Positions 4,546 to 21,382 of a stretch of DNA of 64,000 nucleotides are shown piece after piece (the stretch's first letter is position 1; each line of letters starts with the position of its first letter). This DNA is from an uncultured Candidatus Saccharibacteria bacterium. GTDB taxonomy: Bacteria > Patescibacteriota > Minisyncoccia > Phycocordibacterales > JAACPR01. The translations under genes and the position numbers were made by a program. Location of the stretch: contig CAYOAT010000003.1 of the NCBI GenBank assembly GCA_964402215.1, positions 29,167 through 93,166 on the forward strand. Reading direction: 5' to 3'. The notes under the pieces were generated by a model. It did not search any database. It was given only the letters and a program-made list of their open reading frames with translations, and was not told the origin of the DNA.

Positions 4546-4950
4546 TTAATCTCTCGCTTTGCGAACATCCTTTATCGTGATGAGTTTTTCGCCCCTTGGC
4601 AGAAGTGCCATGTTTCCATTTCCACCCAGGATTTCGAGCCCTCCATTTGGGAGGCGACGCCACCCATGTTTCAAAAGAACGACCAGGAAACCGTCGCTTC
4701 GATCATCAAGTTTCCAGTCGATTTTGTCAAACGGCTGGTGAGCTATCCAATCACATTCGATTTCGATTGAACCACTGATGAGAATGATTGAACGAATTCT
4801 CCCACCAACTAGTTTGTCACGAGTAACGTGATGTGATAAAACTGCTTGGCAACCGATGTAGCCATTCAGCATGGATTGACTCAGTGTATCCGCCCCGCGT
4901 TCGACAAGGGCGTCGAGCATGGCTTCGTACAAATATGTATGTCTTGGCAC
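4546..4950 (-). CDS. Hypothetical protein resembling the C-terminal half of an MJ0936/YfcE-type metallophosphoesterase (possibly an N-terminally truncated remnant)
   Basis: CQAVLSHHVTRDKLVGGRIRSIILISGSIE resembles the C-terminal GHTH...NPGS block of calcineurin-like phosphoesterases. N-terminal metal-binding motifs are absent. Region is visibly GC-richer than surroundings. Confidence 0.25.
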   Translation of the reverse strand: MPRHTYLYEAMLDALVERGADTLSQSMLNGYIGCQAVLSHHVTRDKLVGGRIRSIILISGSIEIECDWIAHQPFDKIDWKLDDRSDGFLVVLLKHGWRRLPNGGLEILGGNGNMALLPRGEKLITIKDVRKARD

Positions 4951-5098
4951 GTAACGTTCTCCTTTGCTTTCTGTTTATAGTTCCAATTCCGTATATGACA
5001 TTACCACTGGTTATTATATGTGTCAACTTCGCAGAAAGTTATAGAAAATAATCAAAATAAAAAGCCCCGCCGGTGTTTTTAGGGCGGGGGATAAGGGT

Positions 5099-5434
5099 TT
5101 AGGAACAAATTGAAATAATTATCTGACTTTCCGATTCGCTGCCATCAAGTGATTCGTGATAGATTTCTTTTTTTCTTTCTGTCGTTGTTGCGGCCTCAAG
5201 GTCACTTATAGATTGTCTCTCTATTGCTTTTTCAATCGCAATTGCTTCTTTGCTTCCGGGCCGTGCTTCTGCCAGTAAGTCATGTCTGTCACGCTGGGTT
5301 ATTGCTTCTCTTAGTCTTTCCATCAAATCGTCGTGCGCAGGTAGTTTGATACCAAACGCAACGGCAATTTTCCAAGCATCGATACCGTGCTTTCTGTGGA
5401 GCGCGATACAATCTTTATATGTTTTTGGTGCCAT
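5099..5434 (-). CDS. Hypothetical protein, possible small DNA-binding protein
   Basis: Likely start MAPKTYK (internal Met of ORF 5099..5500). Segment YKDCIALHRKHGIDAWKIAVAFGIK is HTH-like. Terminator hairpin at ~5060-5095. Divergently shares the 21-bp palindrome with 5492 gene. Confidence 0.3.
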   Translation of the reverse strand: MAPKTYKDCIALHRKHGIDAWKIAVAFGIKLPAHDDLMERLREAITQRDRHDLLAEARPGSKEAIAIEKAIERQSISDLEAATTTERKKEIYHESLDGSESESQIIISICS

Positions 5435-5460
5435 CTGTAATGTCCTTTCTGAGGAAAATA

Positions 5461-5481
5461 TTATCACAAATTTTGTGATAA
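5461..5481. promoter_or_regulatory. Perfect 21-bp palindrome TTATCACAAA-T-TTTGTGATAA in divergent promoter region (putative operator)
   Basis: Read directly: positions 5461-5481 are an exact inverted repeat, 27 bp upstream of the minus-strand ATG (5434) and 11 bp upstream of the plus-strand ATG (5492). Confidence 0.55.
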
Positions 5482-5491
5482 TATAGTAAAT

Positions 5492-5746
5492 ATGAGTCAT
5501 GAAACATTTAAAAAAATAGATCCACCAATTGAATCAGAATTGGCGCTCGACACAAGGCAAGCGCTTTTGGATTTAATAAAATTAAAAAATTACGGCGGTT
5601 TGGATACTGAAAAAATTAATATACAGTTATTATTTATAAAAGAGAGAATTAAAAATCTTTTTGAAAATAATGATCCGTATGCAGAAGAGCTAAGCGATAT
5701 GTTAAAAGGGAATTTTAGTGGTTTTGAACAAGGCTCTATTGAATAG
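5492..5746 (+). CDS. Hypothetical small protein (84 aa)
   Basis: ORF followed by GC hairpin terminator at ~5766-5800 (cacctcgcgctcgcgggtg + T-run). Confidence 0.3.
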   Translation: MSHETFKKIDPPIESELALDTRQALLDLIKLKNYGGLDTEKINIQLLFIKERIKNLFENNDPYAEELSDMLKGNFSGFEQGSIE

Positions 5747-5806
5747 TAGATTTTTTTGAATAAAAAGAAAACACCTCGCGCTCGCGGGTGTTCTTGTTTT
5801 TTTGTT

Positions 5807-6112
5807 TCATGTGAAGATCCTCCGAACAGCCCGCCAAAATGCGCGGAATATTCGTCGGACCAGGTTCAGCATTCCTCTTGCGAGAAACAGTGCAAACCTT
5901 TTGAGATGACAACTTGCCCATCTCAGGATCGCCTTTGTGGGTTTTGCGATGAATGTTTTGAACATCCATCGCAAGGGCTTGATCACAAGGTTCTGGCCAA
6001 TAACTCGCCAGTAACCCTTGAACAATTTAGGCCCGCCCAGAATCAGGGCAATACCTGATCCCGCGACGACCATGACCAGGATGTTTTGCAACATCATCAA
6101 CGTTTCGTTCAC
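5807..6112 (-). CDS. Hypothetical small membrane/basic protein
   Basis: 101 aa, N-terminal hydrophobic helix then Arg/Lys-rich tail. Competing + strand ORF 5756..6058 starts inside the terminator hairpin and is less likely. Confidence 0.2.
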   Translation of the reverse strand: MNETLMMLQNILVMVVAGSGIALILGGPKLFKGYWRVIGQNLVIKPLRWMFKTFIAKPTKAILRWASCHLKRFALFLARGMLNLVRRIFRAFWRAVRRIFT

Positions 6113-6194
6113 CTGAAATCCTTTCTTTAAGATTTGTGAATGTACTATTTATAAAATTATACCAGATTGTGATGGTATTGTCAAATGTAAATAT

Positions 6195-7127
6195 TTATTT
6201 CAAAAAGAAAGCTAATTTTGGAAGTAATGGGTCTATTTGAACTCCAACTCCTTCGTTTACTAAAAAATCTAAACCCGTCATATGATGTGCTAGATCCTCG
6301 TAGTTTGTTCCAAGTATTGTATTATATTCTTCGACAAGAATACCTTGGTTTGGGATACAAGATGTTTCGCTAATACCTTTTAGTTTTGCATAAGTAGCAG
6401 TGTGTTCCGCCTCACTTTCTTTTGGCTTAAAAATATTTTGCAAACCCTCGTCGTTTACAACAACATTTCGGTATTCTCTCTTTTCCCAATAGGCCGTATC
6501 GATAATTTGATCTCGTGTTGGAAACTCGGCACAATGCACAACAATACTTTTTACCATTTTAAGCATTTTTTCTGTACCATCAATACTGCTTTTAAGTTTA
6601 TCTGTTAGTGCAGCCTCATTTGGTAAGTTATTTGCCGCGGCTTCTTTTTTGTATTCAGAAGAATCAACAAAAAAATGTAAATGAGCGGTATCTGATTCTT
6701 TAAACTCGAAGCCTCTTTTTTGAGCTTCTAAAAGTGCAATTTTAAGTTTTTCGCCCAGCTGTTGAACAATAAGTTCTTGTGTTTGTGGATTAAAACTTTC
6801 GGCAAAATTGGCGTGGTAAACATCAGTCATCCTGGCTGAAGTTTTCTCTATACTGGAGGCGATTTTTTCATATTCAGCCTGAGTCAAGGAAATTCTACCG
6901 CCGGTTATTGGAAGGGTATGATTGATTACTCTTTCTACTGCTTCAATTTTTGATTCGGCTGAATCATTTGTTTCATGTTTATCGGCCAAAGTTGCAAAAG
7001 GAAGCATTCCAATAGCACCAAATGCTATGGCTTTTTTTAAAAACTCACGTCTCGAAAGATTACTATCCTCAGGATTATTTTTCTCAGGTGTTTCTATTTT
7101 TGGTTGTGGGGGACCTTCGAATTTCAT
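6195..7127 (-). CDS. Secreted hypothetical protein with twin-arginine (Tat)-type signal peptide
   Basis: N-terminus ...SRREFLKKAIAFGAIGMLPFATLA matches the S/T-RRxFLK Tat consensus plus hydrophobic h-region and AxA-like site. 310 aa, no recognised catalytic domain. Confidence 0.4.
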   Translation of the reverse strand: MKFEGPPQPKIETPEKNNPEDSNLSRREFLKKAIAFGAIGMLPFATLADKHETNDSAESKIEAVERVINHTLPITGGRISLTQAEYEKIASSIEKTSARMTDVYHANFAESFNPQTQELIVQQLGEKLKIALLEAQKRGFEFKESDTAHLHFFVDSSEYKKEAAANNLPNEAALTDKLKSSIDGTEKMLKMVKSIVVHCAEFPTRDQIIDTAYWEKREYRNVVVNDEGLQNIFKPKESEAEHTATYAKLKGISETSCIPNQGILVEEYNTILGTNYEDLAHHMTGLDFLVNEGVGVQIDPLLPKLAFFLK

Positions 7128-7234
7128 ATTTTTATTGTATTTACTTAATATAAGTATATCAAGTAAATACTAAACGATATTAAACAAAACAAAAGGACCA
7201 GATTTTGCAATCTGGTCCGTAGGTACATTTTCCG

Positions 7235-8017
7235 TTATTCTGAGCTGGTCGTTTCGTCGTTCGATAACGCGTCCAGTTCTCTTGCCAATTTGACTAGCTT
7301 GGCTTTTGCCTTCTCGCTAATCGGCATGGCGTCTTTCAAAATAGGAAGCATTTTTTCAGATGTAATATCTAAATCCATGCAGACTAACGCCATCCAGAAA
7401 CTGGCTGCCGTAGCGATTCTATCCGATTCGGATTCTTCATCATTTAGACTTGGCAACGTTGTCACTTGACCCGCATCGATAATATAGTTCATTATATTAT
7501 CGTAACGTTCACCGTCTGATTCTCCAGAGCACACGTCAATGACGAAATTTCCGTCAAGGTTAATTACTCTCCAGGTTTGTTTTATTGGCATAAATTCCTC
7601 TATGCCTAAAAACCTTGGTGACATATAAAATCCCGAACTCTGTGAGTCTTCCGGAGGAGGAAATTCCAAGTTCACCAAGAGAGCAGCCAACGTGGATTTC
7701 ACGTCAGTAACCTCCAATGAAATTGTGACATCCCAATCGTCGCCCGATTGTTCCTCGGCAAGAATGGAAAAATTTCTCCATTGAATCGGGGTTGTTTTCA
7801 TCGCTTCAATGAAAACGTCCTTATCCCTTGAATTGACTGTTTGCTCTTGCATTTGACTGTAGCGCTCAAACTTCCAATTCTTGAAAAAAGACTGAACAAC
7901 TTTGCCGGCCGGGCTTAAGGATTTCTCAGGCACAGCCTGTTTAAAACCACACCCAGACCAAGCAAACACCATTGCCAATATCATGGCAAAACAAACCATT
8001 TTCGTCTTCATCAGCAT
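7235..8017 (-). CDS. Putative lipoprotein, function unknown
   Basis: N-terminus MKTKMVCFAMILAMVFAWSGCG: signal peptide with lipobox-like ...WSG|C. Minus-strand terminator hairpin ggaccagatt..aatctggtcc at ~7195-7220. Confidence 0.4.
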   Translation of the reverse strand: MLMKTKMVCFAMILAMVFAWSGCGFKQAVPEKSLSPAGKVVQSFFKNWKFERYSQMQEQTVNSRDKDVFIEAMKTTPIQWRNFSILAEEQSGDDWDVTISLEVTDVKSTLAALLVNLEFPPPEDSQSSGFYMSPRFLGIEEFMPIKQTWRVINLDGNFVIDVCSGESDGERYDNIMNYIIDAGQVTTLPSLNDEESESDRIATAASFWMALVCMDLDITSEKMLPILKDAMPISEKAKAKLVKLARELDALSNDETTSSE

Positions 8018-8155
8018 CTCCCTTTGTTTTAATGTACTTTATTTAGTTTAGTATCTTCTTACCTAAAATTCTCAAAAAAATATACAAAATAATATTGTGC
8101 TTGTCAAATTATCAAAAAATAAAAAACCCCGCGCGAATGCGACGGGGCAAGTATT

Positions 8156-8485
8156 CTATTGTTGCATCACTTGTTCATTGATCGAATAGGTGATGACACC
8201 CGAATCAAAATTTGAAGGATTGTCAGTGCCGATTGCCGCTTTGACAATTGCGATTGCTTCAAATTGAATTGATTCGCCATTGTAGCACATTGGACCAACA
8301 GGTGGGGTTAACACACCTTTCACTTTGAATCCCTCAGTTCCATCTTTCCAGAAGCACACGTGGCTAATTGTTCTGCATTTGAAGACAACGTGTCCCGCAA
8401 AATGCATTTCCATTCTGTGCTCAACGGCCAACATAGCTGCTTCGATTTTATCAGTAAGAACTATTTTTTTCATTTTCAACCTCAC
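8156..8485 (-). CDS. Hypothetical protein
   Basis: 109 aa ORF (probable start MKKIV...). GC-rich terminator ccccgcgcgaatgcgacgggg at ~8128-8150 downstream on minus strand. Confidence 0.3.
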   Translation of the reverse strand: MRLKMKKIVLTDKIEAAMLAVEHRMEMHFAGHVVFKCRTISHVCFWKDGTEGFKVKGVLTPPVGPMCYNGESIQFEAIAIVKAAIGTDNPSNFDSGVITYSINEQVMQQ

Positions 8486-8640
8486 TTGCTGCGGTTTACT
8501 TATAGAAATATTCTATAAATAGTTAACATTGCGCTAACATTTATTACATTGCCAGACAATTTAAAAATGTCAAAGTACACAATTTATTTAAAATGAAAAC
8601 ACCCCGTCAGAAAACGTGCGATGTTTTCACGACGAGGTGT

Positions 8641-8916
8641 CTAAAATATCCAAGAGAATGGCGCTAGTGCCGCTTCGACGCACCACTGAAGGATACTTCT
8701 TACGACTATTTCTAGCCATAGAATAACCCAGAAGATTCCGCCGATGATGGCGAGAATAGCATAGGCCACGATGACCCACAGAACAGTTTCTGCCAAGAAT
8801 TCCAGTGCCCTTGCAGCGGCACTTTTCTCGGCATAGCGGTGGCTATTTTCGCTGGCCACGATGGCGGCGACAACAACAATCACCGCGAGGATCAGGAAAC
8901 CAATCAAGTCTTGCAT
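8641..8916 (-). CDS. Small membrane protein (2-3 TM)
   Basis: 91 aa, mostly hydrophobic. Confidence 0.3.
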   Translation of the reverse strand: MQDLIGFLILAVIVVVAAIVASENSHRYAEKSAAARALEFLAETVLWVIVAYAILAIIGGIFWVILWLEIVVRSILQWCVEAALAPFSWIF

Positions 8917-8928
8917 GTTTCTCCTTTT

Positions 8929-9159
8929 TTAACGGCAGGTGTTGATGTATATTGCAATCCGCCCAACTATTTCGGTTTCTGCCCCAACAGTTGCGTTAGG
9001 GAACGATTCGTTTATGGTGCGAATCACGAAATTTTGTTGAGATTCAGACAGTACGGCATCGGTGTTCACTGCTTGCCATATTTGTTCCGTGAAATCTCGA
9101 GCGTGTGATCCTGAAGCTCGACTGGTTATCAGTTTCGCCAAAAACTCCTTTGCGTTCAT
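8929..9159 (-). CDS. Hypothetical small protein
   Basis: 76 aa ORF tightly following upstream gene on minus strand. Confidence 0.25.
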   Translation of the reverse strand: MNAKEFLAKLITSRASGSHARDFTEQIWQAVNTDAVLSESQQNFVIRTINESFPNATVGAETEIVGRIAIYINTCR

Positions 9160-9298
9160 TTTTCTCCTTTTTTTGTTTCTTAAATGTACAAGTTTAGTAA
9201 GATTATACTATGTTTATTGTAAATGTCAAATATAAATTAAACGATTAAAAAACCACTCATCGAAATGAGTGGTATGTTGAGTCAGAAAGTATATTTTT

Positions 9299-9868
9299 CT
9301 ATAACTCGCATTTTTCCAAGTAAGCCAACAGCTCGTCAAGCTTTTCGGTGGAAATATAGTTTGGGTTGTCCAACCAAACTTTTTTTGCAAGCTTACCAAA
9401 ATATTGGTTATTGCTTGCTTTGGCAATCTGTATCGCTTCATCATGCGACATCCAGAGGAGCCGTAGGGCAGTTGCCAACATCACAGCTTCGTCGGCCAAT
9501 TCGGGTAATCCAGAAAATGACATAATGAGATTTTTTGCTGGACCAACGCGAATTGCTCCTCCGTAGCAATTCTTCTCCGGATTTCGGCTTTGCCAACTGC
9601 TGATGTGCTCACTGTTCTGAGCCAATCTCACAGCTTTTTCTTGCGAATAGGCGAAGTATTGCTCTCTTTTTTCCGGGGGGCAAACATCGACAGCAAAAAT
9701 TATGATGGGGATGCCTTTTATCGAGGCGGCATCATAAAGGGTGAAGTACCCACTGTCACGACGTGGTTTTTCCTTGCCGTTTTCTGCTTGGATAATTTCG
9801 GCCATGTCACCGACTGTCCACTGTAGAAATCCCAAGATGTCTACATGACTGCGTCCTAATATCATCAT
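9299..9868 (-). CDS. Hypothetical protein
   Basis: 189 aa ORF. Weak resemblance of GGAIRVGPAKNLIMSFSGLPELADEAVMLATA to GlcG/DUF336-like GG..I..G...G..GVSG...DE...A motif. Not enough to name. Confidence 0.3.
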   Translation of the reverse strand: MMILGRSHVDILGFLQWTVGDMAEIIQAENGKEKPRRDSGYFTLYDAASIKGIPIIIFAVDVCPPEKREQYFAYSQEKAVRLAQNSEHISSWQSRNPEKNCYGGAIRVGPAKNLIMSFSGLPELADEAVMLATALRLLWMSHDEAIQIAKASNNQYFGKLAKKVWLDNPNYISTEKLDELLAYLEKCEL

Positions 9869-9949
9869 GATCTTTCTCCTTCCATTTTTATTTTTACATT
9901 GTTCAAAATCTGTCCGTGATACTACAATGAAATATGTTTAAGTCAAATT

Positions 9950-10002
9950 TTACGGACATCGTACGAATCACGGGGAATTAGATTAAGAGCTGGGCAAGGG
10001 AA
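9950..10002 (+). repeat. R1: truncated copy of island repeat family (ggacatcgtacgaa...ggggaatta...)
   Basis: Shares the 5' core GGACATCGTACGAA and the gagggaatta segment with R4-R7, middle part missing. Sits immediately upstream of gene 10024. Confidence 0.45.
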
Positions 10003-10023
10003 GTGTGTGATATAATATTTTTT

Positions 10024-10641
10024 ATGAAAAAATATATGTCATTATTAGTTGTTTTATTTATTTCTTTTTTTATAAATAATAATGCTGTTTTTGCATATGA
10101 ACCGTACGGGTTTAGTTCGTATGGAGCTACTGCATCTAATGCAATTTTGAGTATCACCTCTGTGAAAGAACTAAATGAAATTTCGAAGGTGGTTAAGGCA
10201 CAGATTAAAAATTTAAAAAGTGGTAGTCTCAGAGAAAATCTTTATATTCCAGAAATCACTCTTTCATTACCAGGTGGAACCGATTTTGGTTCAGCAGGGA
10301 TGGTCATGGATCAGCAATTAAAAGTTGTTGTCAAAAATGATAATCAGTTTGGTCAAGTTTTGGGTAGGAAAGATGTTGATTATGCTGTCTATTTGTATGA
10401 AACAACTAAAAATAAAAATAAAAAATTATTTGAAGCGGCTACCGGAACTGTTAATATTTTTGAAGGATATGGTGAGTTTTTCGTCAATATAGAAGGTGGT
10501 CAGCCCTTTGATGGGAAAAATATGGAGAAAACCTACCGAGCCATGGTTGTGATTGACTCATCAAAAGTTATTAAAGAATCAGATGAAAAAGATAACAGTG
10601 TCTGGTCTGATGAATGGCATATTACTTACTATAAAGGTTAA
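10024..10641 (+). CDS. Secreted hypothetical protein (signal peptide)
   Basis: Probable start MKKYMSLLVVLFISFFINNNAVFA (Sec signal, AxA-like site). 205 aa. Confidence 0.4.
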   Translation: MKKYMSLLVVLFISFFINNNAVFAYEPYGFSSYGATASNAILSITSVKELNEISKVVKAQIKNLKSGSLRENLYIPEITLSLPGGTDFGSAGMVMDQQLKVVVKNDNQFGQVLGRKDVDYAVYLYETTKNKNKKLFEAATGTVNIFEGYGEFFVNIEGGQPFDGKNMEKTYRAMVVIDSSKVIKESDEKDNSVWSDEWHITYYKG

Positions 10642-10667
10642 TAAAATGTTGTTTACTATCTAAGTTG

Positions 10668-10820
10668 TGTGCATTGTGCGAAACACTTAGAACCAAATAG
10701 AAATATGGGTTTTACAGACATATGATTTATTAGTTAAACTAGAAAATAGGGAATTGCACATTCTGAAGTACCAAGATTAGATATCACATAGTGGTAATTA
10801 AATTGTTATAATGTATTAAT
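10668..10820 (+). repeat. R2: ~150-bp conserved intergenic module (island repeat family) ending in extended -10 TGtTATAAT just 5' of ATG
   Basis: gcattgtgcgaaacacttagaaccaaatagaaatatgggtttt...gattagatatcacatagtggtaattaaattgttataatg aligns with R4-R8. Confidence 0.7.
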
Positions 10821-11132
10821 ATGAAATTATTAGTATACAGTCTTTTTTCATTGTTAATCTCGGTGGGTGTCGGATTTTCTTACCCAAATTATACCCAGAG
10901 CCAGAATCTAACAAGAATGTTTATTGTTTTGATGCTAATTATCATCTCAATATTATTTTCATATAGAAGCTTAAAAAATGCCAGATTAAATTTGGTGAAA
11001 AATAATCGAGCAACTTCCATAAATCATATTGTAGCTACGTCAGTTCTTTCCATATCAATAATGTATTTTTTACTTTCAATTCTAAGTATCGTTATAATAT
11101 TAATTTCTGGAGGAGATCTCCGCCAGTTTTAA
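10821..11132 (+). CDS. Small membrane protein (3 TM)
   Basis: 103 aa hydrophobic ORF starting directly after R2. Confidence 0.35.
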   Translation: MKLLVYSLFSLLISVGVGFSYPNYTQSQNLTRMFIVLMLIIISILFSYRSLKNARLNLVKNNRATSINHIVATSVLSISIMYFLLSILSIVIILISGGDLRQF

Positions 11133-11175
11133 TTATTTAAAAACTTACCAAATTTATCATTACAATTTTGATTTG

Positions 11176-11451
11176 TTATTTTACTCTTAATTTTATATAC
11201 CAGATAAAAACCCCTATTAAACCGATGACGTTAGTAATTTTCCAAGCAAACAACCACCATGGACCAGGAATAAAACCGTTAGTAATGATCTCTATAAAAT
11301 CTGATATGCCAAAAAATATCAAAACAATTGCTGAAAATATTGCCAATTTTTTATAGATTGTAGGAACAAGCCCATGAAGAATAATAGAGCTCAAACCTAA
11401 AAAAATCCAAAATATTCCTTCTAATAAATTAAATTGAATATAATCGTTCAT
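11176..11451 (-). CDS. Small membrane protein
   Basis: 91 aa, 3 hydrophobic helices. Confidence 0.3.
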   Translation of the reverse strand: MNDYIQFNLLEGIFWIFLGLSSIILHGLVPTIYKKLAIFSAIVLIFFGISDFIEIITNGFIPGPWWLFAWKITNVIGLIGVFIWYIKLRVK

Positions 11452-11469
11452 ATTTTATTTATTATATCA

Positions 11470-11515
11470 AAAGTAGATATCACATAGTGGTAATTAAATG
11501 ATATTATTTAAATAT
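11470..11515 (+). repeat. R3: 3'-portion-only copy of island repeat (agtagatatcacatagtggtaattaaatg)
   Basis: Near-identical to the 3' end of R2 and R8. Upstream of nuclease gene 11621. Confidence 0.45.
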
Positions 11516-11620
11516 ATAGAATAAAGCTAATTAAAACCGATTAAAAACTTATTCAAAAAATATAATAAACTTTCAAAAAAATATAAAGTTTTTGCTATTT
11601 TTCTAATTTCGGTACTCGCT

Positions 11621-12352
11621 TTGATTATTTTGTCTAAAATACTTGTTTTCAGTATTTTTATAGGGGAACGACTGCCCGAGGTAACAAGCACTAATACTTC
11701 AGAGTTCTTATTTTATTCAGTTACTCAGGTTATTGACGGGGATGTGATTGAAATAAGAATCAATGGAAAAGAGCATGTATTTCGTCTCATTGGACTAGAT
11801 ACTCCAGAAAGTGTAGACCCCATAAGAGAAGTTCAATGTTTTGGAAAAGAGGCTTCAAATAAAGCAAAGGAACTTCTGTTTAATAAAAAGGTTCGCATAG
11901 AAACAGATATGAGCCAAGGAGCTACAGATAAGTACGGTCGTATGCTTGCATATGTATATCGTGAAGATGGTCTTTTCTTTAATAAATATATGATTGAACA
12001 AGGATATGCCCGAGAATATACTTATGAAACAGTATATAAGTATCAATCTGAGTTCAAGGCAGCCCAAAAGAACGCGGAAATCTCCCAATTAGGACTTTGG
12101 TCTCCAGGTACCTGTAATGGAAATACTGCAGGTGCAAGCATCCAAACATTAGCTCAAACATATCCCTCTACGACCACCCAATCCTCAGGAAGTATTTATT
12201 ATACTTCAGCTCGTTACAACGCTAAATATTATTACCCAGAAGTCTGTGAGGAGTGGAAAGAATTAAGCCCGACCTTTTTGAAGTCATCTAATAATTTAGA
12301 AGAACTTTTATTTGTATATCCAGCAAGAACCAAGAGTCCTCTGTGTCCATAG
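11621..12352 (+). CDS. Membrane-anchored/secreted thermonuclease (staphylococcal nuclease, SNase-like) with C-terminal extension
   Basis: N-terminal hydrophobic anchor. VIDGDVIEI, RLIGLDTPE, DKYGRMLAYVY, EQGYAREY match SNase active-site/fold blocks (DTPE, Arg, GYA). Confidence 0.75.
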   Translation: MIILSKILVFSIFIGERLPEVTSTNTSEFLFYSVTQVIDGDVIEIRINGKEHVFRLIGLDTPESVDPIREVQCFGKEASNKAKELLFNKKVRIETDMSQGATDKYGRMLAYVYREDGLFFNKYMIEQGYAREYTYETVYKYQSEFKAAQKNAEISQLGLWSPGTCNGNTAGASIQTLAQTYPSTTTQSSGSIYYTSARYNAKYYYPEVCEEWKELSPTFLKSSNNLEELLFVYPARTKSPLCP

Positions 12353-12468
12353 AGTTTAAGGTTATAAAATTTCAACATTAATCTTAAGTAATAAGTGCCT
12401 TGTCAGAATGATATTTTCTGATTTATTAGTTTACTTAATTTCACCACTGGCGGTGTTTAAAATATTCA

Positions 12469-12619
12469 ATGGACATCGTAAAAAATACTTGGAACCAAAT
12501 AGAAATATGGGTATTTAAAATGCATGAAAAACTGTTTAAGCTAGAAAAGAGGGAATTACCCACTCTTGGATATAAATAATTAACATCACATCTAATTAGT
12601 TAAATGTTATTATTTAATT
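12469..12619 (+). repeat. R4: island repeat copy (ggacatcgtaaaaaatacttggaaccaaatagaaatatgggtatttaa...catcacatctaattagttaaatgttattat) abutting ATG 12620
   Basis: Contains TTGGAA-N17-TATTTA candidate promoter and a distal TGtTATTAT extended -10. Confidence 0.7.
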
Positions 12620-13384
12620 ATGAATATTAAAAAAAATATATTAACAATATCGTCACTTGTTATTTTAATAGTAGCAGCACTATTTATTTTTTTACAGAAA
12701 GATAAATTTGTTGAGAGTGATTTGGGACTTAAGGATGAAGATATAAAAGAAGTATCAGGTGATGGATTTAAAAATTGGATAGAAAATGAAGTTGTAAATA
12801 AAGAGCTTTGTTCACTCGAAGGTTCAGATAAAATTGTTTCTGTAACAACTTTGGAGGTCGGCAACTTTGGTGCTAAAAAAGTTTCTATCAATATAACAAA
12901 CTCAGAAGGAAGTTCTCTAAAGTCATTTGATTATGATGGTTCTGTTTGTCCTAGGGTTATAAAAAATAATAAAATATATTTTGAAAAACATGTGTATGAA
13001 TCCGAAGGTCAAATTTTACTGTTGGATATGAATAAACAAAATGGTTTTTTAAATCTAAATATTGGAAGTTTTGGTAGGGTAACGGATGATAAAAATTATT
13101 ATATTTATGTTGCAGATACGAAGGATGAAGATGGCGTAAAGGTGTGTGATAGTATTGAAAATTCATTTAAATATCCAAGGTCTGCTATTTGGGCAATGAA
13201 TTTAGATACTTTAGAAAAGAGAGTATTAATTGAGAGAAAAGATAAATATCTTGCATTAATAGATATATCTGGAAATGATATAAAATATTATGTATATGGA
13301 GTTGGCACAGATGAAGATGAATATGGTTGTCCATCAATAAATCAAGAAGAGAAATTATCTTTAAAATTCAGTAGCATATTTTAA
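12620..13384 (+). CDS. Membrane-anchored/secreted hypothetical protein
   Basis: N-terminal TM/signal MNIKKNILTISSLVILIVAALFIFL. 254 aa, Lys/Asp-rich ectodomain. Confidence 0.4.
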   Translation: MNIKKNILTISSLVILIVAALFIFLQKDKFVESDLGLKDEDIKEVSGDGFKNWIENEVVNKELCSLEGSDKIVSVTTLEVGNFGAKKVSINITNSEGSSLKSFDYDGSVCPRVIKNNKIYFEKHVYESEGQILLLDMNKQNGFLNLNIGSFGRVTDDKNYYIYVADTKDEDGVKVCDSIENSFKYPRSAIWAMNLDTLEKRVLIERKDKYLALIDISGNDIKYYVYGVGTDEDEYGCPSINQEEKLSLKFSSIF

Positions 13385-13387
13385 TTT

Positions 13388-13530
13388 GTGGACATCGTAC
13401 AAAATACTTGGAACCAAATAGAAATATGGGTTTTTTGAGCCGTATGATTTGCTAGTTAATCCAAAGAAGAGGGGATTATGATCCCTTGAGCATCAAAACT
13501 AGATGTCACATTACGGGAATTGAATATTGG
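13388..13530 (+). repeat. R5: island repeat copy with no plus-strand gene downstream (orphan)
   Basis: gtggacatcgtacaaaatacttggaaccaaatagaaatatgggtttttt...gctagttaatccaaagaagaggggatta. Followed by bidirectional hairpin aaccccaccaag...cttgatggggtt (~13578-13620). Confidence 0.65.
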
Positions 13531-13629
13531 TGAGGTACGAGGTGGCATTAGATAATTATTTATACAAAAGAAGAACCCCACCAAGTGCGGACCAGATAGG
13601 ATTCGACTTGATGGGGTTGGTTTACCTCA

Positions 13630-13998
13630 CTATTCACTTTTTTTTATTTTTACCGGTATGCATAACCCACTTTTTCTACCGGACTTGTATCTAACTTCAA
13701 TTTTATCGTTTGTGACGACGCTATCGAAAAGCTCCTTTTCGACACTGGATGAAATTTCTTCACCCTTTATATCGAAGCGAAGTTGATAGGACTCGGGCTT
13801 ATCCTTGCTGACCATTACTCTCCCGAATGGGACCATTGTGCTGGAAGCAGGGATTATCAGCTTTGTTTCGATTGTTGTAACCGTCGTCTTGATTGGTGCG
13901 ACACACACATCAATCAATATGATGGCCATAAACATTAAAAGTCCGACCATGGCGAGTACAATCAACAGCAAAATGAACGCACAGAATTCTTTGAACAC
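13630..13998 (-). CDS. Membrane-anchored hypothetical protein
   Basis: 122 aa. N-terminal TM MFKEFCAFILLLIVLAMVGLLMFMAIILI. Confidence 0.35.
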   Translation of the reverse strand: MFKEFCAFILLLIVLAMVGLLMFMAIILIDVCVAPIKTTVTTIETKLIIPASSTMVPFGRVMVSKDKPESYQLRFDIKGEEISSSVEKELFDSVVTNDKIEVRYKSGRKSGLCIPVKIKKSE

Positions 13999-14149
13999 AG
14001 TAAACTCCTTTTTAAATTAAATGTACTACTCAAATTCAAATAATATTATAACAAATATATATAAAATGTCAAATATATTTAAACAATTAAAAAGACCCCA
14101 CAGGCGTGAGGTCTCGAGATTCCATTTCAATCTCGAAAGTGTGGCGGTC

Positions 14150-14467
14150 CTATACCTTGACTAGAACCACCTGCAGGCCGTAATTGACCGCCGGTTCATG
14201 ACCAAAGTTTGTCGACCCATCATTCCGAACGTATGCAACGGTGAGGACTTTCCATCCATTCGTAACCATACGTTCAATGAGCTTGCTGGGGTTGATGTAT
14301 TTCGTGACAGAATCATCACCCTGGTGGTCAGGGTCGACAACGACCGAACCATCCATTTGAACCATGTGGCAGTTTCTGACGTCGGCGGCTTTTATGGCGG
14401 CCTTTTCAACTAGACCAACGACATGTCCCATTTCTTCGATTTCCAGGATTCCATTCTTTGCACTCAT
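14150..14467 (-). CDS. Hypothetical cytoplasmic protein
   Basis: Likely start MSAKNG (internal Met of ORF 14150..14515). Locally GC-richer than flanks. No secretion signal. Confidence 0.3.
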   Translation of the reverse strand: MSAKNGILEIEEMGHVVGLVEKAAIKAADVRNCHMVQMDGSVVVDPDHQGDDSVTKYINPSKLIERMVTNGWKVLTVAYVRNDGSTNFGHEPAVNYGLQVVLVKV

Positions 14468-14562
14468 CTTTTTTCCTTTCGGCCTATGACCGTGTGTATA
14501 TATGTAAACCCACAATGAGCCTACATAAGTATTATATCAGATATACAGAAAATGTCAAACTG

Positions 14563-14713
14563 GTGGACATCGTACGAAATACTTGGAACCAAACAGAAAT
14601 ATGGGTATTTAAGACTTATGAAAAACTGTTTAAGCTAGAAAAGAGGGAATTACACTCTCTTGTTCATCAGAAATAGACATCACATCTTGTTAGTTAAATG
14701 ATATAATTTTAAT
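14563..14713 (+). repeat. R6: island repeat copy abutting pilin-LVIVD gene ATG (14714); extended -10 aaTGaTATAAT 9 nt before ATG
   Basis: ggtggacatcgtacgaaatacttggaaccaaacagaaatatgggtatttaagac...agaaatagacatcacatcttgttagttaaatgatataat. Confidence 0.7.
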
Positions 14714-16342
14714 ATGAAAAACCGAAGACAAGGTTTCACTCTCCTTGAAATGCTTCTCGTTATAGCTATCATTGCGATTCTTGCTGCCATAGTAATCGTC
14801 GCAATTAATCCAGCTCGTCAATTAGCTCAAGCACGTAATGCCGAGAGAATTTCTGACCTAAATGCATTACATAAAGCTGTTCAACAATACTATATTGATA
14901 ATCGTGTCTGGCCACCACCAGATGACGATCTACCATCAGCACTAACCGATATCTGTAATACTGGTAATGGTGAAACAAACCCTTGTGTTCATCTAGAAGT
15001 CCTTGTCCCAGATTATTTACAATCTTTACCTCAAAACCCTGGTGGAGAGAACTATAAGATTGCATTCAATAGTAAAAAGTTTGCTTTTACTGCTCCTGGT
15101 TCAAAAGAACAAGGTTTGCCTGGTGTAGTCCTTGGAACATCTACTGATGCTGTCGATGATGAAGGTGGTGGAGGAGACACTGATCCAGAATGTAACGATG
15201 GAGAAGATAATGACGGCGATGGAGACATTGATTATCCGGATGATGCTGGATGCGATGATGCTGAGGATGATAGTGAAGCTGATGGCGTAGTACCGGTCGC
15301 CGGGGTTTGTGGGGCGGCTGATGGGCAGACACTTATTGAAGAACCAACTGAAGATTTATGTTCAGTTGGTGATACATCTGAGGTTCTTGGTGAAGGACCG
15401 TGGTTCTGGACTTGTGCTGGTCAAGACGGTGGAGAAGATGATGAGTGTCATGCAGACTATGATTTGCAACCAGTTTTAGTTGGGCAATATAATACTTCCG
15501 GTTGTTCACATGCTGTCCATATTTCCGGAAACTATGCATATGTTGCAGATGAAAGTTCTGGCTTACAAATAATAAACATTTCAGACCCAGCGAACCCAAT
15601 CTGGACTGGTTCATATGACACTCCTTATAATTCATACGGCGTCTATGTTTCGGGAAATTACGCATATGTTGCTGACGGAAGTTCAGGCTTACAAATAATA
15701 AACATTTCAAACCCAGCGAGCCCAGCCTTGACTGGTTCATATGATACACCTGGTGTGGCACGCGATGTCTATGTTTCTGGAAATTATGCATATGTTGCCG
15801 ATCAAAGTTCAGGCTTACAAATAATAAACATTTCAGACCCAGCGAACCCAACCTGGACTGGTTCATATGACACCCCCGGTAGTTCACACGATGTCTATGT
15901 CTTTGGAAATTACGCATATGTCGCCGATGCCATTTCAGGTTTACAAATAATAAACATTTCAGACCCAGCGAGCCCGGCCTGGACGGGTTCATATAATACT
16001 CCCAATAGTTCATATGGTGTCTATGTCTTTGGAAATTACGCATATGTAGCCGATGACAGTTCTGGCTTACAAATAATAAACATTTCAGACCCAGCGAACC
16101 CAACCTGGACTGGTTCATATGACACCCCCAGTAGTTCAAGCGATGTCTATGTTTCTGGAAACTATGCATATGTTGCTGATAACAGTTCTGGCTTACAAAT
16201 AATAAACATTTCTAACCCTTCGAGCCCAGCACAAGTTGGATCTTATTATGGTGGGGACGGTAATGCCTTCGGAGTTTATGTCTATGGAAATTATATATAT
16301 TCAGCTTTTTGTGCTTCCGGTTTGATTATTCACACCCCTTAA
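14714..16342 (+). CDS. Type IV pilin-like protein with acidic Asp-rich linker and C-terminal LVIVD-repeat beta-propeller domain
   Basis: N-terminus [47 protein letters not shown] (prepilin). Middle [26 protein letters not shown]. Seven tandem [23 protein letters not shown]...YDTP units (LVIVD-repeat signature). Confidence 0.8.
   Translation: [542 protein letters not shown]
15527..16280 (+). repeat. Tandem coding repeats (~126 bp period, ~6.5 copies) encoding LVIVD units
   Basis: Near-identical DNA blocks ...ggaaattacgcatatgttgc...ggcttacaaataataaacatttcagacccagcgaaccc... recur. They produce the spurious antisense ORF 15333..16169. Confidence 0.75.
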
Positions 16343-16399
16343 TCTGCTGGGTTTATTATTAAAAAAGTCAGATTAAAAATCTTGATGCAAAAATATTTT

Positions 16400-16545
16400 G
16401 TGGACATCGTACGAAATACTTGGAACCAAATAGAACATTGGGTATTTAAGACGTACGATAAGTTGTTTAATAAGGAAAAGAGGGGATTACACTCTCTTGT
16501 TCATCAGAAATAGACATCACATCTTGTTATTTAAACAACCATTGT
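16400..16545 (+). repeat. R7: island repeat copy downstream of pilin-LVIVD gene with no plus-strand gene following (orphan)
   Basis: gtggacatcgtacgaaatacttggaaccaaatagaacattgggtatttaagacg...agaaatagacatcacatcttgttatttaaac. Its 3' end overlaps stop of minus-strand gene 16527. Confidence 0.65.
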
Positions 16546-17333
16546 GCAATTAGATAAGTGAATAAACCTGCAAATATGGAGCACAAATTTAACACAGTTG
16601 ATAGAAAGAGACTTTTTCTTATACCTATCCTTAAAAATATTTTATAACCAATCGCTTCAACTATTATAATTATAATTTCACTGATTAGAATAATGTTTGT
16701 TAGATTTGCACCAGCAGTTGAAGTTAATAACCAAAAGGGAGTAAAAGTTATTAAGTTTAATATGACAAGTAAGATTGCTGCGTTTTTAAATTTGTTACCA
16801 GTTTTCTTGATTTGTTTTAAGAAAACTAGCAATGCAATTAATTCAATTACTATTGTTAATAATAATGGAAAAAGATATTGAATATAAGTTTCCGGAATTT
16901 TTGCAGTTCTTGTTTTCTCGATAATCAAGTTACCGTCCGATGATTTATTTAAAGAATATGTGACAGTTTGTTGCAGTAAGACATCATTATTTGATATCCA
17001 GACATCGTTTGGAGATATTTTGTCTGATAATAAGTGTAAATCTGAGGTATTATTTTGGCTACCCCACCAAATAGAATAACTACTGAATTTATAAACCGAC
17101 TTCAAACATTTATTAAACTCGATTGGTTCATAAGTATCTTTGTTGTTGAACCCCTTGAATCCAGGTGGTGAAACCCTATTGAATAAATAAATGTTCTCAT
17201 AATTATTAGAATTTTCTATGATGACGCATGTTTTCACTGGATGTGCGTTTGTTGGCGCTAAATCTGCATGTGCGATTCTTCCACTAAAAACAATAACAAT
17301 AAAAAATAATGTATAAACAATTTTTCTAATCAT
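16527..17333 (-). CDS. Signal-peptide protein with C-terminal multi-TM region, function unknown
   Basis: MIRKIVYTLFFIVIVFSGRIAHA signal. Ectodomain ~140 aa then 4 hydrophobic helices. Confidence 0.35.
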   Translation of the reverse strand: MIRKIVYTLFFIVIVFSGRIAHADLAPTNAHPVKTCVIIENSNNYENIYLFNRVSPPGFKGFNNKDTYEPIEFNKCLKSVYKFSSYSIWWGSQNNTSDLHLLSDKISPNDVWISNNDVLLQQTVTYSLNKSSDGNLIIEKTRTAKIPETYIQYLFPLLLTIVIELIALLVFLKQIKKTGNKFKNAAILLVILNLITFTPFWLLTSTAGANLTNIILISEIIIIIVEAIGYKIFLRIGIRKSLFLSTVLNLCSIFAGLFTYLIAQWLFK

Positions 17334-17382
17334 GAATCGATTATATCAAATAGTAAATGTTAGATATATCAGAGATTTTTAG

Positions 17383-17537
17383 TGGACATCGTACGAAATA
17401 CTTGGAACTAAATAGAATGTTGGGTTTTTAAGACGTATGATTTGCTAGTTAACCCCAAAAGGAGAGGATTAAGCACTCCGAAGTATAAAGATTAGATATC
17501 ACATAGTGATAATTAAGTGGTATTATTTGTTATACAA
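17383..17537 (+). repeat. R8: island repeat copy abutting gene 17538
   Basis: agtggacatcgtacgaaatacttggaactaaatagaatgttgggtttttaagacgtatgatttgctagttaacc...gattagatatcacatagtgataattaagtggtattat. Confidence 0.7.
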
Positions 17538-17960
17538 ATGCAAAAAGATACAAGACAGATTGTGATTTTTAATGGATATTTAATACTAACAATAATTAAT
17601 TACTCCGCATTGTTATTTATCAATTTATTTGGTTTAACACAAAAAAGTTTTTATATATTTGAAAAATATTACCCCTATGTAAGTAATTTTTGGCTGTTAC
17701 TTACTGTGGTGGCACTTATATATTTTTTGAAGCAAAAAACCAATAGGATTATTTTATGGATTCCAATTTTATATTTTTTAAATAGCGTAGTTAATTTAAT
17801 ATTTACAATGGTGTTGGATTTAAAGAATGGCAGTGTGTTAGTAGACACAAGCTCTGCGTTAGTGAGAGCATATTTAAATTATGGTCGCATTTTCTTAATC
17901 TATATATTACTATTTTCAGTAGTTTTATTTTTAAAACAATTTTTTGCAAAATCTAAATAA
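17538..17960 (+). CDS. Small membrane protein (4 TM)
   Basis: Probable start MQKDTRQ (ORF 17517..17960). Hydrophobic throughout. Confidence 0.3.
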   Translation: MQKDTRQIVIFNGYLILTIINYSALLFINLFGLTQKSFYIFEKYYPYVSNFWLLLTVVALIYFLKQKTNRIILWIPILYFLNSVVNLIFTMVLDLKNGSVLVDTSSALVRAYLNYGRIFLIYILLFSVVLFLKQFFAKSK

Positions 17961-17985
17961 AAGTTTATTTTTATTGTTTTCTTTG

Positions 17986-18363
17986 TGGAGATGGCGGGAA
18001 TCGAACCCACGTGCAAACAGAGCAAACATATGATTCTACAAAGCCTAGTTAATCTTTTTATTTCGATCTCAAGGCTTAAAGATAAACAGAACACCTTGAA
18101 ATTATAGTCCTTTGTTTTGAAATGAATTCGGACGTAAACATTTCTATCTCGATGATTGTCGCTTTATCTAACTTATCGAGCTTTGGTTAGTAAAACGTCG
18201 CTTAGGCTAAAGCGTAAGCGAATGCAAAATTGCCGACTTTACCGTAAGGTGAAGCTACAGCTTTTTGATTTTCTGCACTTAGTGTTTGTTGCCTTTTAAA
18301 GAGTTGCAACAGCTCTGCTTTGCACATATGTTATGCGTCTGCCTGTCTAAGCCGATCATCCCC
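17986..18363 (-). ncRNA. ssrA: tmRNA (SsrA)
   Basis: Minus strand: 5' GGGGATGATCGGCTTAGACAGG... and tRNA-like 3' end ...GGGTTCGATTCCCGCCATCTCCA. Internal tag-like reading frame ...AENQKAVASPYGKVGNFAFAYALA-TAA. Adjacent smpB. Confidence 0.75.
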
Positions 18364-18485
18364 GCACCATTGTTTAGCTTGATAACAAATATAAGTTTTT
18401 GAGTTCCTCCGCAGGGCGTAGCCTGAGGACTGGAACGAACAAAACTCATATTTGTGATCTCCTACACAACAATGCGCGAATGATC

Positions 18486-19003: not shown

Positions 19004-20947
19004 ATGAACGATGAAAAACAGACTCCGAAATTAAAAATTAAGATTAAAAAAGCAGGGAAGGGACGCTTTGGCCAAACACCAAATGGTATCTGGGGGAATT
19101 TAATTACGACTATTCTTGTTATTTTTACGATTGTTTTTATTTATTCTTCAATTGCAGAAGGCACAAAGAATCAAGAAGAAATTGCCTTGTCAAAACTTAC
19201 CCAGGATATCAAATCTGGAATTGTTGAAACTATCACAATTCGTGGAGACGAAGTCGAAGCAAAATACAAAGACAGTGAAATAATTCGAACTACAAAGAAA
19301 GAAGCCGCAGCATCTTTTTCAGAAACTCTTGTGGACTACGGTTTAACTGCAGAAGAAATTTCAAAAGTTACTATTGATATAAAAAATGAGACAGGTTTTG
19401 GCTACTGGTTTTACAATTTAGCACCATTTTTACTTCCACTATTTTTCGTTCTCTTTTTAATTTGGTATTTAACACGACAAGTTAAAGGTGCTGGCATGCA
19501 GGCGTTTACCTTTGGTCAAACAAACGCACGTTTAGTAAATCCAAAAGATAAAAGCAAAGTTACGTTTAAAGATGTCGCTGGCGCAAAGGAAGCCAAAGAA
19601 GAATTGATGGAAATTGTTGATTTCTTAAAAAATCCTAAAAAGTTTTTGGACATCGGCGCGCAGATTCCAAAAGGAATTCTGCTTATGGGTGCTCCTGGTA
19701 CAGGAAAAACTTTACTTGCTCGTGCGACCGCCGGGGAAGCCGGTGTCTCATTCTTTTCTGTTTCTGGTTCTGAATTCGTCGAAATGTTTGTCGGTGTTGG
19801 TGCAAGCCGTGTTCGTGATTTATTTAAATTAGCAAAATCTGCTTCGCCAGCCATAATTTTTATTGATGAAATAGATGCTGTTGGCCGCGCTCGTGGAGTT
19901 GGTGTTGGTGGTGGAAATGATGAAAGAGAACAAACTTTGAATCAAATATTGGTTGAAATGGATGGTTTTGAACCGGCTGACAAAGTTATTGTTATGGCTG
20001 CGACAAATAGACCAGATGTTTTGGATCCAGCAATTTTACGACCAGGACGATTTGATCGTCGCGTTACTATTGATTTACCTGATCGAAAAGATCGTGAAGA
20101 TATTTTGAAAGTTCATGCGTTGAATAAACCTCTTGCTGAAGATGTAAATTTCATTGTTTTAGCAGAAAGAACACCAGGATTTTCTGGAGCAGATTTGTAT
20201 TCAATGGTTAACGAAGCAGCAATTCTTGCGGCACGTGAAAGTCGAAAGAAAGTCGCACAATTTGATTTAATCCGTTCGATTGAAAAAGTTATGCTTGGTC
20301 CAGAACGTCGCAGCCACTTACTTTCTGAGAAAGAAAAGAAAATTACGGCATATCACGAAGCGGGGCACGCATTAGTTGCTTCACTACTACCAAATTCTGA
20401 TCCGGTTCATAAAATTTCTATTATTGCTCGTGGTCGCGCAGGTGGTTACACAATTAAACTGCCATCAGAAGATCGAAAATTACAATCACGCAAAGAATTT
20501 TTGGATGATTTGGTTATGACACTTGGTGGTTATGTTACCGAACAAATGATTTTTGGTGATATCACAACTGGTCCATCAAATGATTTACAAGTGGCGACAT
20601 CTTTGGCACGCGATATGGTAACCAGATTTGGAATGTCAGAAAAATTTGGACCAATCGCCCTGGAAGGAAACGGTGGACGTACAATTTTTGGTCACGGAGT
20701 CGCTGATAAAGAATACGCAGATAAATTTGGTGATGAAATTGATAATGAAGTTTCAAAAATGTTATCAACCGCAAGAACTCATGCCGAAAAACTTCTTTCT
20801 GAAAATAAAATAGTTTTGGATGCAATTGCCAATAAATTATTAGAAGTTGAAACCCTTGAAAGAGAAGAATATGAAAAATTATTAGCGGTTCACGGAATTA
20901 CTGTTCACGACTCACGAAAAGATAAAGATAGTTTAAATTTAAATTAA
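19004..20947 (+). CDS. ftsH: ATP-dependent zinc metalloprotease FtsH
   Basis: N-terminal TM pair. AAA Walker [14 protein letters not shown], Walker [21 protein letters not shown] zinc motif. Confidence 0.95.
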
Positions 20948-21283: not shown

Positions 21284-21382
21284 GACATCCGCCTTTCATT
21301 TGGTTTGTGGAATGAACGTTTCAGCCACAAATTCTACATATAAAAGTAAAGATGTCAATTTCTTCATTAGACAACAAAATTG

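Follow-up and report, generated by a model that had tools for sequence, protein, structure and literature searches.

A Tandem Gene Array at the 3′ End of ssrA in a Patescibacterial Genome: Probable Remnants of Large Serine Recombinase Elements

Introduction

Patescibacteria, the bacteria of the Candidate Phyla Radiation (CPR), have tiny genomes, and the routes by which they acquire genes are little known. We analyzed a 64-kb stretch of DNA (hereafter, the window) from an uncultured Candidatus Saccharibacteria bacterium, in which an array of genes separated by ~150-nt repeats lies against the 3′ end of ssrA, the gene encoding transfer-messenger RNA (tmRNA). The original prediction for this locus, made from the sequence alone, was that a genomic island had entered at the 3′ end of ssrA and that the lack of an integrase argues for an old or decayed insertion or for a non-canonical mechanism. 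We wanted to know how these genes came to lie there. The answer that we favor, with a probability of about 80%, is that the island consists of the remains of integrative elements stacked in tandem, each inserted exactly at the ssrA 3′ end by a large serine recombinase (LSR).

Results

The ssrA Locus and Its Array

The array is bounded on one side by a complete tmRNA gene, followed by conserved genes:

17985..18363, minus strand: complete tmRNA gene (ssrA), detected by ARAGORN and as Rfam RF00023
18486..18935, minus strand: smpB, a conserved flank and the query for finding relatives
19004-20947, plus strand: ftsH

The RF00023 match covers model positions 1-374 with a score of 127.8 bits, and the tmRNA encodes the tag peptide AENQKAVASPYGKVGNFAFAYALA. 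Read on the plus strand, the terminal bases of ssrA are GTGGA (17985-17989), which form the proximal boundary of the array. The array itself occupies 9952-17960 (~8 kb), which agrees with the predicted span back to ~9.9 kb, and its terminal cassette gene stops 24 nt short of the tmRNA 3′ end at 17985. The k-mer composition, proposed as a check, is indeed atypical: the tetranucleotide composition of the region from 7 to 18 kb differs from that of the remainder of the window with z = 2.2-6.2 (core maximum 4.0). The island is present at 100% identity in three independent assemblies and is therefore not an assembly artefact.

The ~150-nt repeat family is confined to 9952-17540 within the window, and every copy is on the plus strand; no matches were expected by chance (0 in 100 shuffles). 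There are seven copies and one partial copy. Six are full, starting at 10667, 12469, 13388, 14563, 16400 and 17382, one consists of the promoter part only (11464) and one is degenerate (9952):

9952-10016, plus strand: R0, the most degenerate copy, distal; reads TDIVRITGN followed by a stop (read by hand), with TG-TATAAT
10667-10812, plus strand: R1, tail with a stop after 7 codons
11464-11507, plus strand: R2p, promoter part only
12469..12613, plus strand: R3, 36-codon LSR-tail open reading frame (ORF) and putative promoter
13388..13525, plus strand: R4, LSR-tail remnant with a stop after 16 codons; degenerate promoter
14563..14707, plus strand: R5, intact 37-codon LSR-tail ORF (14563-14676, stop codon TAG at 14674-14676)
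16400..16545, plus strand: R6, intact 37-codon LSR-tail ORF (16400-16513); degenerate promoter part
17382..17526, plus strand: R7, LSR-tail remnant VDIVRNTWN with a stop after 9 codons; -35 ATCACA, -10 TATTAT

The tails of R3, R5 and R6 are thus full length (36-37 codons), and those of R0, R1, R4 and R7 stop early. Stretches of ~36 nt are identical or near-identical among five of the copies. After the stop codon of the tail, the repeats carry a -35 box ATCACA, a spacer of 17-18 nt and TG-TATAAT or TATTAT, with an ATG 6-11 nt further on (for R5, ATCACA and TG-TATAAT, with the ATG 6 nt downstream). This leaderless-type layout of promoter and ATG is also seen in host genes, and the 3′ part of the repeat is, judged by its motifs, a plausible promoter. 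Leaderless promoters are predicted at 10783-10812, 12585-12613, 14679-14707 and 17498-17526.

Other readings of the repeat were tried and rejected. For a single-strand structure like that of integron attC sites, DNA folds gave z = -2.3 to +1.3 with no long stem in common, and for a conserved RNA structure the alifold consensus was -0.68 kcal/mol; Rfam gave no match in the repeats. An apparent covarying hairpin corresponded to the terminal part of the tail ORF, where conservation is poor. ECF-sigma, sigma-54 and dif/Xer-like readings of the motifs were weighed by eye and dropped, the coding frame accounting for the invariant TGG. Scanning metagenomes with the repeat core gave one match (L062), which the hidden Markov model of the repeat did not confirm and which we take as chance, and scanning viral contigs gave none.

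Identity of the Repeats

When translated from its GTG-GAC boundary, the repeat gives a conserved peptide of ~36 aa (VDIVRNTWNQIE.WVF..). Its consensus, VDIV(R/L)N(T/Y)WN(Q/H)(I/L)E.WV(F/Y)(K/E).Y(D/E)K..., was found in almost every copy in eight genomes, and in most of these copies the frame is open for 28-44 codons. Differences between copies bear the mark of coding sequence, with 304 at the third codon position versus 185 and 200 at the others, and with 138 synonymous codon differences in the tail frame versus 43 and 81 in the other two frames. The invariant motifs TTGGAAC and TGGGT correspond to two Trp codons.

The same peptide forms the contiguous C-terminus of the intact LSR homologues P0231, P0241, P0152, P0193, P0194 and P0148. 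Window copy R6 matches P0241 with E = 2e-5, and a copy at 13556 in the relative L063 matches P0231 with E = 2e-12 (62% identity over 37 aa). All alignments between tails and LSRs begin at residue 1 of the peptide (residue 2 for R3) and at residue ~500-520 of the LSR. By these alignments, the ~150-nt repeats are split-off 3′ ends of LSR genes, each followed by a predicted promoter.

The LSR family comprises 619 homologues at E <= 1e-60. A regular-expression classification of the 120 best database homologues found a peptide tail encoded antisense to a T-arm (VEMAGIEP...) in 91 and the intact tail in 7. From the high proportion of antisense T-arm tails, the family appears to insert at tRNA-like 3′ ends, splitting its own gene.

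Recombinase Genes at ssrA in Relatives

Relatives were retrieved via SmpB (52-93% identity), and their regions after ssrA were compared:

L063, SmpB identity 93%: at least 10 repeat copies, different genes after ssrA
L004, SmpB identity 92%: LSR gene against the ssrA 3′ terminus; repeats absent from the 5.9 kb up to the contig end
L005, SmpB identity 79%: 1 repeat copy
L068, SmpB identity 71%: no repeats
L075, SmpB identity 66%: LSR gene against the ssrA 3′ terminus; one full repeat copy and an apparent degenerate partial copy (by eye)
L070, SmpB identity 64%: 2 repeat copies
L006, SmpB identity 63%: 4 repeat copies and an IS30-like element

All relatives examined retain ftsH and smpB-ssrA (ftsH similarity was measured in L004, L005, L006, L008, L063 and L068) and diverge at the final tmRNA bases ...CCATCTCCAC (...CTCCAC). 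From the last tmRNA base onward, their content is wholly different. Moreover, four of them (L004, L075, L078 and L080) have an LSR gene that abuts the 3′ end of ssrA in antisense orientation, so that insertion at this site, as originally predicted, is supported. These LSRs are 515-550 aa long and contain Resolvase and Recombinase domains (PF00239, PF07508); those of L004 and L075 share 59% identity, and the catalytic domain has a match in the TP901-1 integrase. Each of the ORFs is cut exactly at the codon at which the tail starts, and then runs on into antisense tmRNA (VEMAGIEP...). In L075, L078 (4418-4572) and L080 (5829-5979), one repeat copy is present at the far end of the element, with its GTGGAC boundary facing outward; judged by position and orientation, this copy is the putative attR that integration would be expected to leave.

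The contigs with intact LSR genes, L085 (6410-12376) and L086, also encode Prim-Pol/AAA_25 and ParB_N proteins and a second Resolvase/Recombinase protein. This gene set may represent the free mobile form of the element.

The window itself gave no sign of a recombinase gene. A tblastn search with the LSR as query and a six-frame scan for catalytic motifs were both negative, and a Pfam scan of 27 additional ORFs showed none among the 25 families listed out of 31 matched, which upholds the original observation that the window lacks an integrase. In a search for LSR remnants, tblastn matched the antisense-tmRNA stretch of the window only. For IntI or another tyrosine recombinase, none of the six frames of the window showed the motif, and the same 25 of 31 Pfam families included no match.

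The Junctions with ssrA

Intact LSR genes read ...|GTGGACA at the position of the split, versus GTGGAGA in antisense ssrA, which gives a common core GTGGA. The 5′ boundary of the repeat (GTGGACATCG) and the tmRNA terminus on the plus strand (GTGGAGATGG) agree at 8 of 10 positions in register, a match with an empirical frequency of 2.5e-4 per position. In L063, the cassette end CAGTT(T)GACA has ssrA (...CTCCAC) as its neighbor in one case and a repeat (...GTCCAC) in three, and this junction is also seen at window copy R5. The joining of one cassette end to either partner means that a repeat can stand in for ssrA at such a junction, and ssrA for a repeat, to the exact nucleotide. Across lineages, co-variation between the repeat boundary and the ssrA end could be followed at one informative site only.

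A direct repeat of 15-25 nt derived from ssrA had been predicted at the distal boundary, and this part of the prediction failed. The terminal 23 nt of ssrA do not recur with <=3 mismatches, short-word blastn gave no match of >=15 nt, a gapped local alignment of the repeat with the ssrA 3′ end was not significant (P = 0.17-0.5) and no displaced ssrA fragment was found at the distal end. Only the 5-nt GTGGA is held in common, because the crossover is at the extreme 3′ end of ssrA.

A palindrome counted by hand in the attP of L075 (11/15) was treated as chance, as intact genes reach <=7/16. As a separate observation, the sequence after the junction at 10965-10972 of L063 completes an encoded CCA end (CTCCACCAG), while positions 17981-17989 of the window encode only ...CTCCAC; bases derived from the element thus decide whether the 3′ CCA of tmRNA is templated.

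Synteny in Relatives

Gene content after ssrA differs among the relatives, as the proposed comparison of synteny was meant to reveal. In L005, synteny returns at the homologues of the window genes 4436->1045, so that the variable interval is 13.5 kb in the window and 5.3 kb in L005. The cassette containing the SNase gene (11464..12352) is the only one common to the window and L063, and it is distal in both arrays. Between the two, nucleotide identity is 89% for the cassette as a whole and 91% for the SNase gene, and core protein genes are less alike (smpB 86.7%, ftsH 84%, recG 80.6%).

The orientation of the repeats relative to ssrA is uniform across all copies in nine genomes. The most degenerate copies are distal (R0 and R1 in the window, r10 in L063), and the LSR elements are invariably ssrA-proximal, with presumably older repeats beyond them (L075, L078).

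Two further observations concern mobile DNA in these regions. Insertion sequences of the IS30 family lie within the ssrA arrays of L006 (14150-15145) and L075 (13308-14324). That of L075 has 27-nt inverted repeats and is immediately beside a repeat copy, and L006 contains two copies of an 88-nt piece, at 12041-12128 and 15069-15156. In addition, a tRNA-Ile gene with the rare anticodon UAU is located at 21382-21455 (minus strand) of the window and was found in every relative scanned (L004, L005, L006, L008, L009, L010, L012, L063, L068, L070, L075 and L080), usually near ftsH/recG. Directly after this gene, L004 has ~4.2 kb extra (L004 3777-7953 versus L063 7562-7949), and the site may be a second integration hot spot. 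A Plastid-ycf2 Rfam match on its antisense strand (44.6 bits versus a gathering score of 65.7) was judged spurious.

Cargo of the Array

The units of the window are 0.7-2.1 kb long and contain one or two genes each, none of which encodes an integrase:

10024-10641, plus strand: gene B, behind R0; looks secreted
10821-11132, plus strand: gene C, behind R1; hydrophobic by eye
11176-11451, minus strand: gene D, in the R1 unit; hydrophobic by eye
11621-12352, plus strand: gene E, SNase nuclease, behind R2p
12620..13384, plus strand: gene F, 254-aa orphan with an N-terminal stretch resembling a transmembrane segment
13630-13998, minus strand: gene G, GC-richer, with an AGGAG-type Shine-Dalgarno site
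14150-14467, minus strand: gene H, GC-richer, with an AGGAG-type Shine-Dalgarno site
14714..16342, plus strand: gene I, type IV pilin-like N-terminus and six LVIVD repeats
16527..17333, minus strand: gene J, 268-aa orphan, by eye hydrophobic and likely a membrane protein; a TATAAT of its own precedes the ATG by 7 nt
17538..17960, plus strand: gene K, 140-aa orphan, hydrophobic by eye, likely membrane

The cargo is therefore of mixed orientation. Apart from the SNase nuclease and the pilin-like protein that carries LVIVD repeats, its products are orphan proteins, which by eye look mostly like membrane or secreted proteins. This matches the surface, secreted and nuclease genes described in the original prediction, and the GC-richer ORF at 14150-14467 is likewise present. 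Protein H is an orphan among 5.8 billion proteins.

Gene I has paralogues at 1045-1956 and 45808-47268 (plus strand). The three pilin-like proteins are ~60% identical over their N-terminal 160-200 aa, and the copy in the island has five 126-nt tandem units (15487-16290) that encode LVIVD repeats.

Outside the array, beyond the distal repeat, lies a further block:

4546..9868, minus strand: ~5 kb of GC-richer (38-41%) orphan genes, several with Shine-Dalgarno sites

This block is missing from L005, and L063 matches only 5242-5725 of it; it may be an older or different insertion. Ten proteins (G, H and those of eight genes of this block) had no match in PHROGs. The 189-aa protein A (9299-9868, minus strand) has no Pfam, PHROG or Protein Data Bank (PDB) sequence match and belongs to an uncharacterised family with 1200 cluster representatives at E <= 1e-3, mostly of ~155-170 aa.

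Host genes lack Shine-Dalgarno sites; AGGAG-type sites are found in G, H, gene A and several of the genes between 4.5 and 9.9 kb, so that genes bearing them are concentrated in the variable region. Many core genes have a TGnTATAAT box ~7-11 nt before the ATG (for example, upstream of 26299, of 35384-36631 on the minus strand and of 39437), and leaderless or near-leaderless mRNAs seem, from this spacing, to be the norm in this genome. In the G/H region (13630..14559), each gene is behind a perfect TTGACA-16-TATAAT promoter (14531-14558 and 14045-14072). This promoter constitutes a second repeat of ~30 nt, present at 9202-9230, 14045-14073 and 14531-14559 (minus strand) in the window and at 11838-11929 and 16469-16525 in L063, where it runs on into a conserved 5′ untranslated region with AAGGAG. 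The ~30-nt repeat precedes reverse-oriented, GC-richer cargo (three genes in the window), and in L063 it touches the tmRNA end directly. Together, the Shine-Dalgarno sites and the TTGACA-16-TATAAT promoter point to a different donor for this reverse-oriented cargo.

Discussion

Our proposal for the origin of the array is as follows. In the free circular element, the attachment site would lie inside the LSR gene, ~36 codons before its stop, at GTGGA, and the 3′ end of ssrA read antisense would present the same core. Integration would split the LSR gene. Its body would come to lie against ssrA and read into antisense tmRNA, and the 36-codon tail, with the promoter and the gene(s) next to it in the circle, would become the distal attR end of the element. 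The ~150-nt repeats of the window are orphan LSR tails of this kind with a predicted promoter. New elements would enter at ssrA, pushing older units outward. After integration, the truncated integrase would probably be disabled and the element trapped, and the split integrase body and most of the element would later be deleted, with the promoter-equipped cargo beside attR retained.

If so, the eight units of the window would be attR scars of at least eight serial LSR integrations at ssrA, with the newer units proximal. The distal position of the degenerate repeat copies and of the shared cassette and the ssrA-proximal position of the LSR elements fit such an order of insertion. We infer the order of events, the route by which LSR bodies were lost, the activity of the promoters and any present mobility of the cassettes. 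The earlier view of an old or decayed insertion would accordingly hold for the loss of the integrase, but not for a single island, as there are about eight stacked units with split-off integrase 3′ ends.

Several points weigh against this proposal. The window holds neither an LSR body nor a fragment of one, so that the link to LSRs is made through the relatives and the tail peptide. There is no conserved P′-like arm at the ssrA-proximal cassette ends and no inverted symmetry in the intact attP regions (at most 7/16), which leaves the origin or movement of LSR-less units unexplained. Arrays within a species are identical between samples, and no turnover was seen directly. Finally, seven neat single-gene units are more orderly than random decay predicts, and the three tails with full open frames could indicate recent arrival or some kept function.

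It is also conceivable, although we consider it doubtful, that the array is a working gene-capture platform, either with the tails as landing pads that restore an active recombinase of full length upon insertion of an incoming element beside them or with integrase-less single-gene cassettes mobilised in trans. Such a platform would be a serine-recombinase analogue of the integron, diversifying the surface of an ultra-small symbiotic bacterium.

We think it improbable that the repeats are a shared promoter or regulatory module of a family of surface-protein genes, in an array that grew and changes by homologous recombination between the 150-nt repeats (duplication, deletion or exchange following DNA uptake), free of site-specific integration, and whose position at ssrA is incidental. 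Such a module would be in keeping with near-identical stretches of ~36 nt in five copies, which are long enough for RecA, with a plausible promoter at the spacing to the ATG (6-11 nt) that host genes also show, and with the stability of arrays within species. However, it leaves unexplained why the repeats contain a conserved ORF identical to LSR C-termini, why a single repeat copy lies at the ends of the LSR elements of relatives and why ssrA, sharing GTGGA alone, is a nucleotide-precise, interchangeable junction partner. Homologous recombination may still act secondarily in reshuffling the array.

Still harder to credit is an integron-like platform in which the ssrA end serves as attI, the repeats serve as attC and the recombinase is encoded elsewhere in the genome. 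The uniform orientation of the repeats, the mostly orphan cargo, the interchangeable proximal site and the distal position of the shared cassette resemble an integron, but neither the motif scan of the window nor the listed Pfam matches showed an IntI or another tyrosine recombinase, the repeats have neither attC-like hairpins (z -2.3 to +1.3) nor a consensus structure (-0.68 kcal/mol), each cassette comes with a promoter and the repeat codes for part of an integrase. The least credible explanation, a single old decayed prophage or genomic island with internal repeats of unrelated origin, would suit the atypical composition and the lack of an integrase and can be set aside in view of eight ordered units with the same terminal module on each, a copy number of this module that varies among relatives from 1 to at least 10, the missing ssrA-derived direct repeat and the lack of PHROG matches for the ten proteins tested.

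Read as a stack of remnants of LSR elements, the locus would represent a concrete route of gene acquisition in Patescibacteria, in which a self-splitting LSR acting at the ends of ssrA or tRNA-like genes leaves a stack of promoter-bearing genes. The orphan integrase tails would provide a simple sequence marker with which past integrations can be found and ordered in metagenome-assembled genomes. With a 5-nt core and a defined natural target, these recombinases may also interest builders of genome-engineering tools.

Comparison with Known Systems

In the literature that could be searched, we found no description of such a system in CPR bacteria; several systems in other organisms have features in common with it. 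Islands as defined by Islander (PMC4383910) have a tyrosine integrase and a displaced 3′ fragment of the target, neither of which was found in the window. The Tycheposon islands of Prochlorococcus (bioRxiv 10.1101/2020.12.28.424599) are likewise variable islands at tRNA and tmRNA genes of a streamlined genome, where incoming elements push older ones deeper and leave remnants, but their recombinases are mostly tyrosine recombinases, and the marks left behind are partial tRNA copies.

Sedentary chromosomal integrons and CALIN are similar in their long arrays of one orientation, their small orphan cassettes, a repeat of ~120-150 nt and turnover among relatives. They differ in that the window contains no IntI, its repeats have no attC structure (R''-L''/L'-R'), its cassettes are self-promoted and point towards the anchor site, and the repeat is serine-recombinase coding sequence. 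SCCmec and pseudo-SCC elements at orfX/rlmH (CcrAB; see also PMC3146451) resemble the elements proposed here in LSR insertion at the 3′ end of an essential gene and in composite tandem arrays, some units of which lack recombinase genes. The target gene and host are different, however, and SCC repeats are short integration-site sequences rather than fragments of the integrase.

The splitting of the integrase gene resembles in principle that of the archaeal SSV-type "suicidal" integrases (PMC7253208, PMC8371274), in which the attachment site also lies inside the integrase ORF, orphan integrase fragments mark past integrations by tRNA-like genes and decay leaves captured genes. Those are archaeal tyrosine recombinases, whereas here the enzyme is a bacterial LSR of which only the last ~36 codons are split off; the principle would thus be extended to a bacterial serine recombinase.

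The closest known system is that of the ssrA genomic islands (ssrA-GIs) of Dehalococcoides. These are tandem islands downstream of ssrA with a 540-aa serine recombinase, DsiB, encoded on the reverse strand at attL (McMurdie et al. 2011, PMC3146451). The authors noted that the 3′ end of dsiB overlaps attL in every case and suggested that the gene might be whole in the circular form only (PMC3146451). The likeness to DsiB and CcrB is one of layout and description, the LSR described here being defined by its Pfam Resolvase and Recombinase domains and its match to TP901-1.

There are also differences between the two systems. The crossover described here falls within the terminal 5 nt of ssrA and not in the T-loop, which explains why there is no 20-bp ssrA direct repeat as in Dehalococcoides. 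The diagnostic repeat is a 36-codon integrase tail with its putative promoter, the units of the window are integrase-less with one or two genes, and the host belongs to the Patescibacteria/Paceibacteria. The resemblance lies in tandem units that begin right after a single-copy ssrA, bounded by att repeats in direct orientation, some of them without an integration module. In the relatives L004, L075, L078 and L080, though not in the window, it extends to an LSR gene beside attL whose 3′ end overlaps ssrA, and, as in the Dehalococcoides integration module, the relatives with an intact LSR carry a ParB_N gene and a second recombinase. The mechanism of the Dehalococcoides ssrA islands would thereby be extended to another phylum.

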